Shown: positions 51,001-64,000 of the stretch, in pieces
How the letters are laid out: each line of letters starts with the position of its first letter
Position numbering within the stretch: the stretch's first letter is position 1
Source: Escherichia coli
GTDB lineage: Bacteria > Pseudomonadota > Gammaproteobacteria > Enterobacterales > Enterobacteriaceae
Strand: one strand, 5' to 3'
Assembly (NCBI RefSeq): GCF_050920415.1
Contig: NZ_CP169309.1
DNA: 64,000 nucleotides
Made by a program: the position numbers

Positions 51001-54000
51001 AGCAGATCCTGGATATCGGCGATGCTTCTGCGCAGGAACTGGCTGAAATCCTGAAGAATGCGAAAACCATTCTGTGGAACGGCCCGGTTGGCGTGTTCGA
51101 ATTCCCGAACTTCCGCAAAGGTACTGAAATCGTGGCTAACGCTATCGCAGACAGCGAAGCGTTCTCCATCGCTGGCGGCGGCGACACTCTGGCAGCAATC
51201 GACCTGTTCGGCATTGCTGACAAAATCTCCTACATCTCCACTGGCGGCGGCGCATTCCTCGAATTCGTGGAAGGTAAAGTACTGCCTGCAGTAGCGATGC
51301 TCGAAGAGCGCGCTAAGAAGTAAAAAATCACAGGGCAGGGAAACCTGCCCTTGTTGCAGCGCGCTTTTAGAGCACGCATTTTTTCATACTCTAAATAATT
51401 CGAGTTGCAGGAAGGCGACAAGAGAGTGAATCCCCAGGAGCTTACATAAGTAAGTGACTGGGGTGAGCGAACGCAGACGCAGCACATGCAACTTGAAGTA
51501 TGACGAGTATAAGGCCCGACGATACAGGACAAGAGACATGTCTAAGATTTTTGATTTCGTAAAACCTGGCGTAATCACTGGTGATGACGTACAGAAAGTT
51601 TTCCAGGTAGCAAAAGAAAACAACTTCGCACTGCCAGCAGTAAACTGCGTCGGTACTGACTCCATCAACGCCGTACTGGAAACCGCTGCTAAAGTTAAAG
51701 CGCCGGTTATCGTTCAGTTCTCCAACGGTGGTGCTTCCTTTATCGCTGGTAAAGGCGTGAAATCTGACGTTCCGCAGGGCGCTGCTATCCTGGGTGCGAT
51801 CTCTGGTGCGCATCACGTTCATCAGATGGCTGAACATTATGGTGTTCCGGTTATCCTGCACACTGACCACTGCGCGAAGAAACTGCTGCCGTGGATCGAC
51901 GGTCTGCTGGACGCAGGTGAAAAACACTTCGCTGCTACCGGTAAGCCGCTGTTCTCTTCTCACATGATCGACCTGTCTGAAGAATCTCTGCAAGAGAACA
52001 TTGAAATCTGCTCTAAATACCTGGAGCGCATGTCCAAAATCGGCATGACTCTGGAAATCGAACTGGGTTGCACCGGTGGTGAAGAAGACGGCGTGGACAA
52101 CAGCCACATGGACGCTTCTGCACTGTACACCCAGCCGGAAGACGTTGATTACGCATACACCGAGCTGAGCAAAATCAGCCCGCGCTTCACCATCGCAGCG
52201 TCCTTCGGTAACGTACACGGCGTATACAAGCCGGGTAACGTTGTTCTGACTCCGACCATCCTGCGTGACTCTCAGGAATATGTTTCCAAGAAACACAACC
52301 TGCCGCACAACAGCCTGAACTTCGTATTCCACGGCGGTTCCGGTTCTACTGCTCAGGAAATCAAAGACTCCGTAAGCTACGGCGTAGTGAAAATGAACAT
52401 CGATACCGATACCCAATGGGCAACCTGGGAAGGTGTTCTGAACTACTACAAAGCGAACGAAGCTTATCTGCAGGGTCAGTTGGGCAACCCGAAAGGCGAA
52501 GATCAGCCGAACAAGAAATACTACGATCCGCGCGTATGGCTGCGTGCCGGTCAGACTTCGATGATCGCTCGTCTGGAAAAAGCATTCCAGGAACTGAACG
52601 CGATCGACGTTCTGTAAGTCATTCCTTTCTGCTTATCTCAAGGCCCGCTCTGCGGGTCTTTTTTTCGCCAAAAGAAAAAATGCCTGATGCGCTACGCTTA
52701 TCAGGCCTACACGTATCCTGCAATATATTGAATTTGCAGGTTTTTGTAGGCTGGATAAGGCGTTAAAGCCGCATCCAGTATGACAAATCGCACATTGCTA
52801 TCTGTCTGAGGCCCGCTCTGCGGATCTTTTTTCACCAAAAGCAAGGTGATGCAGATGAGAAATCTGTGATCTATTTGGCAAAATTATGCTTTATTGTTTA
52901 CCCTTGTCAGACTGCCCGTCATAAGGCGGCGGAGTGTATTTCTCCATTTTGAGTCAGTTGAAAAGGAATATTGAATGGAAGATTTGAATGTTGTCGATAG
53001 CATAAACGGCGCGGGGAGCTGGCTGGTGGCTAACCAGGCGCTGCTGCTAAGTTATGCAGTAAACATCGTGGCGGCACTCGCGATCATCATCGTTGGTTTG
53101 ATTATCGCGCGGATGATTTCCAACGCGGTGAATCGCCTGATGATCTCCCGTAAAATCGATGCCACCGTTGCTGATTTTCTTTCTGCATTAGTCCGTTACG
53201 GAATTATCGCCTTTACGCTAATCGCTGCACTGGGCCGCGTGGGCGTACAAACAGCGTCAGTCATTGCTGTACTCGGTGCCGCCGGCTTAGCTGTTGGTCT
53301 GGCTTTGCAGGGGTCACTGTCTAACCTGGCCGCTGGCGTGTTACTGGTCATGTTCCGCCCGTTCCGTGCCGGAGAATATGTTGACCTCGGCGGCGTAGCC
53401 GGTACTGTGCTGAGCGTGCAGATTTTCTCCACCACCATGCGTACTGCAGACGGTAAAATTATCGTTATTCCGAACGGTAAAATTATTGCCGGGAATATTA
53501 TTAACTTCTCCCGCGAGCCAGTTCGCCGTAACGAATTTATTATTGGCGTGGCGTATGATTCCGATATCGATCAGGTTAAGCAGATCCTGACCAATATTAT
53601 CCAGTCTGAAGACCGCATTTTGAAAGATCGCGAAATGACTGTGCGTCTGAACGAACTTGGCGCATCGTCGATTAATTTTGTGGTCCGCGTCTGGAGCAAA
53701 AGCGGCGATCTGCAAAACGTGTACTGGGATGTGCTGGAGCGTATTAAACGTGAATTTGATGCCGCCGGTATCAGCTTCCCGTACCCGCAAATGGATGTGA
53801 ACTTTAAGCGGGTGAAAGAAGACAAAGCTGCATAATCAACGCTGAGGCCAGATAATACTCTCTGGCCTCTCTCTTATTAGTTTTTCTGATTACCAATTAA
53901 TATTATCAATTTCCGCTAATAACAATCCCGCGATATAGTCTCTGCATCAGATACTTAATTCGGAATATCCAACGTGTTTTCTTATTACTTTCAAGGTCTT

Positions 54001-63000: not shown

Positions 63001-64000
63001 CTGTAATGTTCTGTAGTCCGGGCGTTTCATTGCTGTTGTCTGCTCCTGGTAAATGCTTTTTCCTGCACTATGACACAATTTTGCGTCAGGTTGCATATAC
63101 CGAAGCCGTCGGCGGGTACATTTGTATCAGTGGTTAAACACGCAGCTTAAAAGATCAGGGATTTGCGCTATTGCATTTCGCTCAGCGAGTTCGCGCCCTG
63201 GAGCGGCATACCCAGACCTTTATATGCTTTGTTTGCGGGGCGAAAGGGGATGCCCGCTATTGCACGATATTTTATGGATGAGGTAACCACGCGACTTGCC
63301 AACGGGGTCTGAATCGCTTTTTTTGTATATACTCGTCATACTTCAAGTTGCATGTGCTGCGTCTGCGTTCGCTCACCCCAGTCACTTACTTCTGTAAGCT
63401 CCTGGGGATTCACTCTCTTGTCGCCTTCCTGCAACTCGAATTATTTAGAGTATAATGCGTGTGAAATTTCATACCACAGGCGAAACGATCATGACGCAGG
63501 ATGAATTGAAAAAAGCAGTAGGATGGGCGGCACTTCAGTATGTTCAGCCCGGCACCATTGTTGGTGTAGGTACAGGTTCCACCGCCGCACACTTTATTGA
63601 TGCGCTTGGCACGATGAAAGGCCAGATTGAAGGGGCTGTTTCCAGTTCGGATGCGTCCACTGAAAAACTGAAAAGCCTCGGCATTCACGTTTTTGATCTC
63701 AACGAAGTCGACAGCCTTGGCATCTACGTTGATGGCGCAGATGAAATCAACGGCCACATGCAAATGATCAAAGGCGGCGGCGCAGCGCTGACCCGTGAAA
63801 AAATCATTGCTTCGGTTGCGGAAAAATTTATCTGTATTGCAGACGCTTCTAAGCAGGTTGATATTCTGGGCAAATTCCCGCTGCCAGTAGAAGTTATCCC
63901 GATGGCACGTAGTGCAGTGGCGCGCCAGCTGGTGAAACTGGGCGGTCGTCCGGAATACCGTCAGGGCGTGGTGACCGATAACGGCAACGTGATCCTCGAC

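Follow-up and report, generated by a model that had tools for sequence, protein, structure and literature searches.

Two near-identical copies of a short repeat face each other about 12 kb apart in Escherichia coli contig NZ_CP169309.1. This arrangement poses the question of how the two copies came to be so alike, and whether recombination between them exchanges their sequences or inverts the genes that they enclose. We addressed this question within the window, by which we mean the whole stretch of 64,000 nucleotides that was analyzed, and in complete E. coli genomes.

A repeat finder and direct comparison agreed that positions 51386-51511 (+) and 63328-63453 (-), which have 11,816 nt between them, match as reverse complements over 126 nt at all but one base, much as an earlier note on this DNA had described them. 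The mismatch falls at position 62 of the copies, leaving identical blocks of 61 and 64 nt, and corresponds to the difference between CTTATGTAAGC and CTTCTGTAAGC in that note. When the arms are extended by one base, the copy near rpiA (copy B) becomes a full 127-nt element, TATACTC...GAGTATA; the copy near fbaA (copy A) has C, not T, at the corresponding base. A 44-nt core pattern with up to three mismatches allowed has two sites in the window, A and B, and none in 100 shuffles.

The window coordinates also confirm the flanking genes that the note had named, namely, pgk and fbaA for copy A and argP and rpiA for copy B (Table 1). The gene order between the copies is fbaA, mscS, argO, yggE, srsR (ygfI), scpC, scpB, meaB (argK), scpA, argP, and a yqfE remnant. 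The long N-terminal extension of fbaA, suspected in the note to be an artifact, is one: the open reading frame from GTG 51454 crosses copy A, and the coding sequence annotated in RefSeq is shorter.

Table 1. Positions of the two repeat copies and of neighboring features in the window
Feature	Position	Strand	Remarks
pgk stop codon	51321-51323		
ERIC copy A	51385-51511	+	pgk-fbaA spacer; first base C instead of the usual T
Differing site, copy A	51447	+	T, the ERIC consensus base; apical loop of the predicted hairpin
Inter-repeat segment	51512-63327	.	11,816 nt
fbaA, true coding sequence	51538-52617	+	ATG at 51538; RefSeq annotation of 1,080 nt
argP	62137-63030	-	
ERIC copy B	63328-63454	-	full 127-nt element between the yqfE remnant and rpiA
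Differing site, copy B	63392	-	G in element orientation (C on the + strand); marks locus B only
TATAAT, inferred -10 hexamer of rpiA	63451-63456	+	crosses the end of copy B, with four bases from the ERIC/target TA run and two from the flank
rpiA, 5' part	63491-64000	+	ATG at 63491; continues past the end of the window

The two copies as members of the ERIC family

Both arms are copies of ERIC (also IRU or RU-1), an enterobacterial miniature inverted-repeat element of 127 bp that forms hairpins. The earlier note had assigned them to this family, and primer sequences, reference matches, and predicted hairpins all support the assignment. The ERIC1R and ERIC2 primer sequences by which we recognized the ERIC core are those attributed to Versalovic et al. 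1991. Both occur exactly in copy A; copy B contains ERIC2 exactly and ERIC1R with one mismatch, the G at position 62 (here G62). When aligned with the E. coli ERIC consensus, copies A and B each agree with it in 115 of 130 columns; with Salmonella SeRU-1 they agree at 117 to 118 of 127 positions, copy A at 117 (both references from PMC2759123). As RNA, the two copies are predicted to fold into hairpins of -38.6 to -49.4 kcal/mol (z of -4.7 to -8.0); the long hairpin predicted for copy A has -48.9 kcal/mol (z of -6.8).

A sensitive blastn search found no further ERIC in the 64-kb window, and megablast places a median of 5 to 6 ERIC sites in each E. coli genome. The E. coli sites that we saw are intergenic: pgk-fbaA, yqfE-rpiA, cusC-cusF, panC-rpnC, near ybfA, yeiS-preT, and yehK-yehL. 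The five E. coli loci beside A and B, which were collected indirectly (the similarity search gives one place per record), match A or B at 114 to 126 of 127 positions. Within this set, copies A and B and the cusC-cusF copy make up a tight subfamily, in which B and the cusC-cusF copy each lie one base from A and which is about 88% identical to the published E. coli consensus.

A fixed copy at pgk-fbaA and a rare insertion at rpiA

Copy A is both old and fixed at its site between pgk and fbaA. Among 5,426 complete E. coli genomes, 5,422 have an intact pgk-ERIC-fbaA locus. An ERIC-like element also lies directly 5' of the conserved GGCCGAAGATACAGG in Raoultella, Kosakonia, Entomohabitans, and others, with the same orientation in several genera; in Enterobacter, Kluyvera, and others, the pgk-fbaA spacer measures about 90 to 110 nt and is free of ERIC. 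The two genes are listed as part of a single operon, epd-pgk-fbaA (PMC8910356). Copy A is oriented with both of them and so would belong to any transcript that spans the two, in which it would fold into a long hairpin.

Copy B, by contrast with this fixed element, occurs in only 66 of the 5,426 genomes (1.2%), and the empty site GTATATAATGCG is the state of most E. coli. When filled and empty alleles of the yqfE-rpiA region are aligned, 123 nt are missing from the empty allele, and copy B appears as a clean insertion into a (TA)3 run that holds the inferred -10 box of rpiA, with TATAAT re-formed at the junction. Because the target is itself a TA repeat, the size of the target duplication is ambiguous, and the (TA)3 target together with the net gain of 123 nt is compatible with a duplication of 0, 2, or 4 bp. 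The TATAAT hexamer is probably a promoter element of rpiA. The insertion re-forms this hexamer but swaps all sequence upstream of about -12 for ERIC. A simple sigma-70 promoter scan reported no -35/-10 pair in the upstream region of rpiA, filled or empty, and the scan therefore yields no prediction of a change in expression.

Other species share the empty arrangement. The 13 other enterobacterial species shown, like the E. coli empty site, keep the TATAATGCG sequence about 35 to 40 nt 5' of the rpiA start codon, and the empty site aligns without gaps with this region of those species. No ERIC was present upstream of rpiA in 80 other enterobacterial species among the matches listed, a set that does not include E. 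albertii, E. fergusonii, or the cryptic clades. Judged from these sequence comparisons, copy B is most likely a derived insertion of the same near-consensus ERIC subfamily as copy A. Our literature search found no paper that connects ERIC with rpiA.

The sister copy at cusC-cusF is more widespread, with the site filled in 1,606 of the 5,426 genomes (30%). There, the empty site reads CAGCAA-TA-ACTTTT, and the filled site, longer by a net 125 nt, carries TA...TG, a pattern that fits a TA duplication and one later change. The target was the TA of a stop codon (TA/TG repeat); the insertion destroyed this stop codon, and the replacement stop lies three codons upstream. One tentative interpretation is that an ERIC master resembling copy A has kept transposing while E. 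coli diversified and that the copies at yqfE-rpiA and cusC-cusF are its products. If so, E. coli population genomics would hold enough recent ERIC insertions for an association search for the enzyme that moves them.

Origin of copy B and tests for exchange with copy A

We consider it likely, with a probability of roughly 0.8, that copy A is old and fixed, that copy B is a single derived insertion, and that the pair has undergone no detectable inversion or conversion. The source of copy B would have been copy A or a copy indistinguishable from it. The element would have inserted once, either already carrying its private T-to-G change in the loop or acquiring it afterward, and would since have persisted as a low-frequency presence/absence polymorphism, with homologous recombination, occasional precise loss, or the two together reshuffling it over varied backgrounds.

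The G62 marker carries much of this argument. It is present in copy B of all nine carrier sequence classes examined, and a marker-specific short query found it in copy A in 0 of 5,423 genomes, and neither outside the carriers of B nor in any other ERIC. Exact matches to a 60-nt core with G62 were found in 58 genomes, a number equal to the 66 carriers minus the 8 in which an internal insert interrupts the core. Since the marker is common to all nine classes and never seen in copy A or another ERIC, copy B is an old allele, and conversion with copy A is undetectable. The carriers themselves are diverse, in line with an old allele that has been reshuffled: they include E2348/69, porcine enterotoxigenic strains (ETEC), and the divergent strain GF4-3.

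Plasmids were also considered as the donor of copy B, and this candidate was rejected. The plasmid matches were chromosomal segments or chromosomes labeled as plasmids, such as epd-pgk-fbaA on NZ_CP137739.1 and a cus operon contig, and no mobile vehicle for copy B was found among them.

A single origin could also lie further back. It is conceivable, though we think it rather unlikely, that copy B was ancestral in E. coli and that most lineages lost it by hairpin-promoted precise deletion between the flanking TA repeats, the 66 carriers being relics. Copy B sits on six structural backgrounds of the yqfE region, and in SCU-172 and GF4-3 it co-occurs with an intact four-gene island that most strains have since lost; both points speak for an ancestral element. 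The flanks can also be nearly the same whether the site is filled or empty: over about 800 nt, a single clear SNP separates the filled allele of C4 from the empty one of H3, if a few mismatches bordering the alignment gap are set aside. A strong hairpin flanked by short direct repeats, such as copy B would form, is a classical substrate for deletion. However, most of the 247 island-carrying genomes are not among the listed carriers of copy B, and the two island-bearing genomes that were checked directly, ECONIH1 and IMT16316, are both empty. All four combinations of island and ERIC, present or absent, exist. Ancestry would require many recurrent precise losses. In SCU-172, 7 SNPs and one indel are concentrated within the 85 nt left of ERIC, versus 4 SNPs in the 3.3-kb island, and this short recombinant tract around the element shows that the allele moves by recombination. 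The data fit both an insertion that came late and was spread by recombination and one that came early and was repeatedly lost by precise deletion.

Far less probable is the proposal of the earlier note that the pair reflects recent copying or gene conversion, whether copy B is taken as a fresh duplication in the present strain or the two copies as kept alike by ongoing exchange. Its premise, that independent ERIC copies usually differ more, stands in part: copies A and B lie just 12 kb apart and differ at 1 of 126 positions, and other independent E. coli ERIC pairs differ at 4 to 14 of 127. Yet the distant cusC-cusF element is equally close to copy A. Fresh copying is also at odds with the occurrence of one and the same G62 allele in 66 diverse genomes and with the confinement of the exact G62 core to carriers. 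A test for concerted evolution saw no variant moving between the copies, with G62 in every copy B examined and never in copy A. Likewise, copy A of CFSAN018748 has G76A and that of E2348/69 lacks one nucleotide, and neither variant recurs in copy B of the strain concerned. In our preferred reading, the likeness of the two copies reflects their youth relative to the slow sequence change of ERIC, not exchange.

RecA-dependent recombination needs a minimum of roughly 25 bp, which both identical blocks exceed, and the earlier note had suggested that the pair could invert the segment from fbaA to argP. For this test, the chimeric junction that an inversion would create (pgk, ERIC, and the reverse complement of the argP side) was built and searched in all complete E. 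coli genomes at a coverage cutoff of 80%. That the 11.8-kb segment is an inversion polymorphism or switch is the least probable explanation of all, since the junction was covered to at least 80% in 0 of 5,426 genomes, the 66 carriers included, the uninverted pgk-ERIC-fbaA arrangement is the nearly universal one, the whole segment is collinear with the window in the carriers E2348/69 and CFSAN018748, and inversion would part fbaA from its pgk-side sequence, with about 26 nt left between ERIC and the start codon. An inversion would probably be selected against because fbaA would be moved from its present upstream sequence. The note had added that equally similar copies in most E. coli, with no inversion polymorphism, would make the pair uninteresting. 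This situation does not arise in that form because most E. coli lack copy B altogether. With no detectable inversion or conversion in thousands of genomes, this 126-bp pair 12 kb apart does not deserve to be marked as a structural-variation hotspot.

Significance and relation to known elements

Taken together, the pair consists of ordinary ERIC elements, one of which is a modestly interesting rare insertion. ERIC is used worldwide in strain fingerprinting. To our knowledge, its E. coli copies are generally treated as static in the literature, and we know of no mechanism or enzyme described for its movement. Copy B, in our preferred reading an unfixed insertion of single origin, lies exactly on the inferred -10 box of a gene of the pentose phosphate pathway. 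Together with the cusC-cusF copy, it provides dated, polarized insertion events for studies of ERIC mobility, and the natural pairs of filled and empty alleles are material for testing the effect of ERIC on a promoter.

Among RNA families, Rfam gave no match to copies A and B except one below threshold, and nested modules gave no meaningful match. The exception is RF02818 (V_AS5, Vibrio antisense RNA AS5), which both copies match from end to end (E values of 4e-6 to 2e-5) with the same overall hairpin. Membership was rejected, as the scores are 38.9 and 41.4 bits against a gathering score of 96. Most likely, the match reflects a model built on a Vibrio ERIC-like repeat.

The Correia elements (CREE) of Neisseria offer another parallel. 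They too are miniature inverted repeats that insert at TA, vary among strains, and often lie just 5' of genes, altering promoters (PMC3184786). They nevertheless belong to an unrelated sequence family and contain promoter and IHF-binding motifs of their own; copy B showed no promoter motif.

The ERICs of Yersinia are described as orientation-dependent mRNA stability elements in the part of De Gregorio et al. 2005 relayed by PMC2229807 and PMC3184786. Copy A is likewise located within an operon, between two genes, and has the same kind of long predicted hairpin; by analogy, it may influence the stability or processing of the pgk-fbaA transcript. The TA duplication reported for Yersinia in those accounts fits the cusC-cusF insertion. 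Copy B differs in that it lies 5' of the inferred transcription start of rpiA and would therefore be outside the rpiA mRNA.

The nearest relatives are the ERIC/IRU elements themselves, which reviews class as miniature inverted-repeat elements with terminal inverted repeats, target duplication, and TA termini (PMC2229807, PMC3184786). As far as the descriptions of 1991 and of Wilson and Sharp 2006 are conveyed by PMC2229807 and PMC2759123, our copies share with them the 127-nt size and the inverted ends TATAC...GTATA. They also share the central core targeted by the primers, the long imperfect hairpin, the intergenic location, and the presence of several copies per genome, and copy A is the resident pgk-fbaA copy of K-12-type strains (e.g., H6). 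Copy B departs from this picture in two respects: it is an unfixed member of the family, and it sits in the -10 box of a promoter rather than within or after a transcription unit.

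Two inverted ERIC arms

Inspection of the sequence, a repeat finder, and direct comparison all confirm the inverted repeat described in the earlier note: two arms 11,816 nt apart, with a single non-complementary position among 126. The gene order in the window, which is E. coli DNA, is pgk, copy A, fbaA, mscS, argO, yggE, srsR, scpC, scpB, meaB, scpA, argP, a yqfE remnant, copy B, and rpiA. The mismatch lies at copy position 62, where copy A has T (window 51447) and copy B has G when read along the element (C on the plus strand, window 63392); we refer to this base as G62. With one additional base, copy B is the full canonical 127-nt TATACTC...GAGTATA (63328-63454), and copy A has C at 51385, where the canonical end would extend. 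When up to three mismatches were allowed, a 44-nt core pattern matched only copies A and B in the window and nothing in 100 shuffles. Sensitive blastn showed no further ERIC anywhere in the 64 kb. As annotated, fbaA is 1,080 nt long and equals window 51538-52617; the longer open reading frame from GTG 51454, which passes through copy A, is an artifact, as had been suggested.

Three of the ERIC copies in this analysis
Feature	Location	Strand	Length	Remark
Copy A arm	window 51386-51511	+	126 nt	
Copy B arm	window 63328-63453	-	126 nt	
cusC-cusF ERIC	L103:2501-2627 (fetched locus)			filled; locus L104 is empty; outside window

Both arms are ERIC/IRU elements, as identified in the earlier note, and primer sequences, consensus match, and hairpin bear out that label. 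The two ERIC-PCR primer sequences are exact in copy A; in copy B, the one mismatch falls within ERIC1R. The predicted fold of either strand is a single long hairpin (-38.6 to -49.4 kcal/mol, z -4.7 to -8.0), with the differing base in its apical loop. The copies agree with Salmonella SeRU-1 at 117 to 118 of 127 positions and with the Wilson and Sharp consensus for E. coli, reproduced in Delihas 2007 (PMC2759123), in 115 of 130 aligned columns. Rfam returned a full-length V_AS5 match below threshold (38.9 and 41.4 bits versus 96). According to reviews, ERIC is a miniature inverted-repeat element that has terminal inverted repeats, duplicates its target, and carries TA at its ends (PMC2229807, PMC3184786).

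Two other features lie nearby. A G+C-rich stem-loop, GGGCAGGGAAACCTGCCC, is located shortly past the pgk stop codon (51332-51351), and many other genera keep its sequence or form in their pgk-fbaA spacers, with or without a following ERIC. The fbaA-mscS spacer holds an Rfam ES036 (CssrF) match (52703-52784, minus strand, 47.3 bits versus a threshold of 37.6) adjoined by a weak plus-strand naRNA4 (CssrE) match; these probably reflect a REP-type repeat.

Histories of copies A and B

Copies A and B differ greatly in their population histories. A 726-nt query spanning pgk, copy A, and fbaA was at least 80% covered in 5,422 of 5,426 complete E. coli genomes. The equivalent copy B query was covered in only 57, and a tighter 326-nt query in 66 of the 5,426 (1.2%). 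Copy A looks old: the pgk-fbaA spacers of Raoultella, Kosakonia, Entomohabitans, and others carry an ERIC-like element that matches copy A in position and orientation, and those of Enterobacter, Kluyvera, and others are empty (90 to 110 nt). Copy B most likely derives from copy A itself or from another copy that cannot be told apart from it. One plasmid-typed record (L102; NZ_CP137739.1, IncFIA, 187 kb) carries chromosomal epd-pgk-copy A-fbaA-mscS-argO; several other ERIC-matching "plasmid" records, of 0.7 to 4.9 Mb, look like mislabeled chromosomes.

Alignment of the empty allele of most strains (...TTTTTTTGTATATAATGCGTGTG...) with the filled allele of the window (...TTTTTTTGTATATA-CTCGTCAT...TTTAGAG-TATAATGCGTGTG...) reveals a clean insertion, the segment missing from the empty allele being 123 nt. 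With (TA)3 as the target, a duplication of 0, 2, or 4 bp would look alike. Among the RpiA matches listed, none of 80 other enterobacterial species has an ERIC upstream of rpiA. All 13 other species displayed have TATAATGCG approximately 35 to 40 nt before the rpiA ATG; we read this motif as a putative -10 box. The E. coli empty site aligns without gaps to this conserved upstream region, which argues that the empty state is ancestral and copy B a derived insertion. The insertion re-creates TATAAT at 63451-63456, and everything upstream is now ERIC sequence; a simple promoter scan returned no -35/-10 pair in either the filled or the empty rpiA upstream region. Copy B is a rare, single-origin insertion exactly on the putative rpiA -10 box; judging by the accessible literature, this is a new finding.

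The earlier note had proposed recent copying or gene conversion; the distribution of G62 supports neither. We sampled copy B carriers in nine sequence classes (window type, EC42405, C4, CFSAN018748, which stands for a class with many porcine ETEC, 2013C-4282, SCU-172, GF4-3, 06-00048, and E2348/69), and all nine have G62, SCU-172 and GF4-3 with one further private change each. No perfect match to a copy A-specific 96-nt G62 query occurred among 5,423 genomes. The 60-nt ERIC core carrying G62 has an exact match in 58 genomes, a count equal to the 66 carriers minus the 8 in which an internal insert breaks the core. G62 is thus confined to locus B, with no other G62 donor, and no conversion is detectable from A to B or from B to A. 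Two strains have private changes in copy A (G76A in CFSAN018748, a 1-nt deletion in E2348/69), and neither change recurs in that strain's copy B. Copy B is a single old allele rather than a recent copy.

This allele occurs in at least six structural versions of the argP-rpiA region. In two of these versions (SCU-172 and GF4-3), a 3.4-kb island of four genes is intact, with a full-length LysR gene at its end. The island is found in 247 of 5,426 E. coli genomes, most of them absent from the listed carriers, and ECONIH1 and IMT16316, checked directly, are both empty; all four island/ERIC combinations therefore exist. SCU-172 and IMT16316 differ by 4 SNPs over the 3.3-kb island, but the 85 nt immediately left of the ERIC alone hold 7 SNPs and an indel; this stretch is a short imported tract. 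Between C4 (filled) and H3 (empty), approximately 800 nt of flank show a single clear SNP, besides a few mismatches at the alignment-gap edge. The mixed backgrounds, the SCU-172 tract, and the C4/H3 near-identity point to movement of the allele between backgrounds by recombination, to occasional precise loss, or to both.

The yqfE pseudogene (window 63031-63327) is a relic of this island (loci L097:10295-13585, L098, L100, and L101), which encodes a ferredoxin-reductase-like protein, a DUF1471 protein, an FMN azoreductase, and a LysR regulator. The window strain's remnant has its own extra deletion (44 nt versus H3, 89 nt versus FORC064). In nearly all 80 other enterobacterial species among the matches listed, argP is directly beside rpiA. 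An ERIC-like element lies approximately 10 kb downstream of rpiA, at a roughly common position (~19,900-20,500 in loci L017, L022, L024, L027, L028, L036, L052, L067, L079, and L084), in Salmonella arizonae and several Citrobacter, Kluyvera, Klebsiella, and Kosakonia species; the corresponding 13 kb in E. coli contains none.

Inversion between the copies

Inversion of the intervening segment, also proposed earlier, found no support. We built the predicted junction (pgk end, ERIC, reverse complement of the argP side), and it was at least 80% covered in 0 of 5,426 complete genomes. The whole A-B segment of E2348/69 and CFSAN018748 is collinear with the window, and in N96 the two loci lie approximately 12 kb apart on the same strand. 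The copies share identical blocks of 61 and 64 nt, lengths that suffice for RecA-dependent exchange. An inversion would leave fbaA with approximately 26 nt between ERIC and start codon, away from its pgk-side upstream sequence, so we would expect such inversions to be removed by selection.

A copy A-like subfamily and internal modules

Whether one mismatch is unusual depends on the comparison. ERIC portions at four other loci (panC-rpnC, the ybfA region, yeiS-preT, and yehK-yehL) differ from copy A at 4 to 13 of 127 positions and among themselves at 5 to 14, but the cusC-cusF ERIC also differs from copy A only once, at position 39. That copy is unfixed, being filled in 1,606 of 5,426 genomes. 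Its empty site reads CAGCAA-TA-ACTTTT, where TA is part of the TAA stop codon of cusC. In the filled allele the ends are TA...TG and the net gain is 125 nt, and on the filled haplotype a TGG-to-TGA change creates a new stop three codons upstream. As the cus copy and copy B are each 1 nt from copy A, the three form a tight subfamily centered on the copy A sequence, and copy B belongs to a young, copy A-like subfamily in which at least one further member is unfixed.

Structured inserts occur inside some ERIC copies at fixed positions, both at copy B (L004/L096 from E2348/69; L005 from 06-00048) and elsewhere (L012, L013, L014, and L015). One module, of 71 nt, follows ERIC position 44 (GAGTGA^ATCCCC); the other, of 79 nt, comes after position 85. 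Locus B has three forms (short, +71, and +71+79), all with G62, so the modules were gained or lost in place. Each of the two occurs in approximately 11 to 12% of genomes, usually as a single copy. Both have a CAAAT...ATTTG hairpin at the start and a hairpin with a CATGGATG loop at the end (DNA fold z of -6.9 and -6.1), and they share one orientation despite lying in opposite ERIC arms. No clear target duplication accompanies either module. The two may represent a separate, site-specific mini-element nested in ERIC, or what remains of a longer ancestral ERIC.

Copies A and B are ordinary ERIC elements; copy B and its subfamily are of modest interest for ERIC biology and no surprise.
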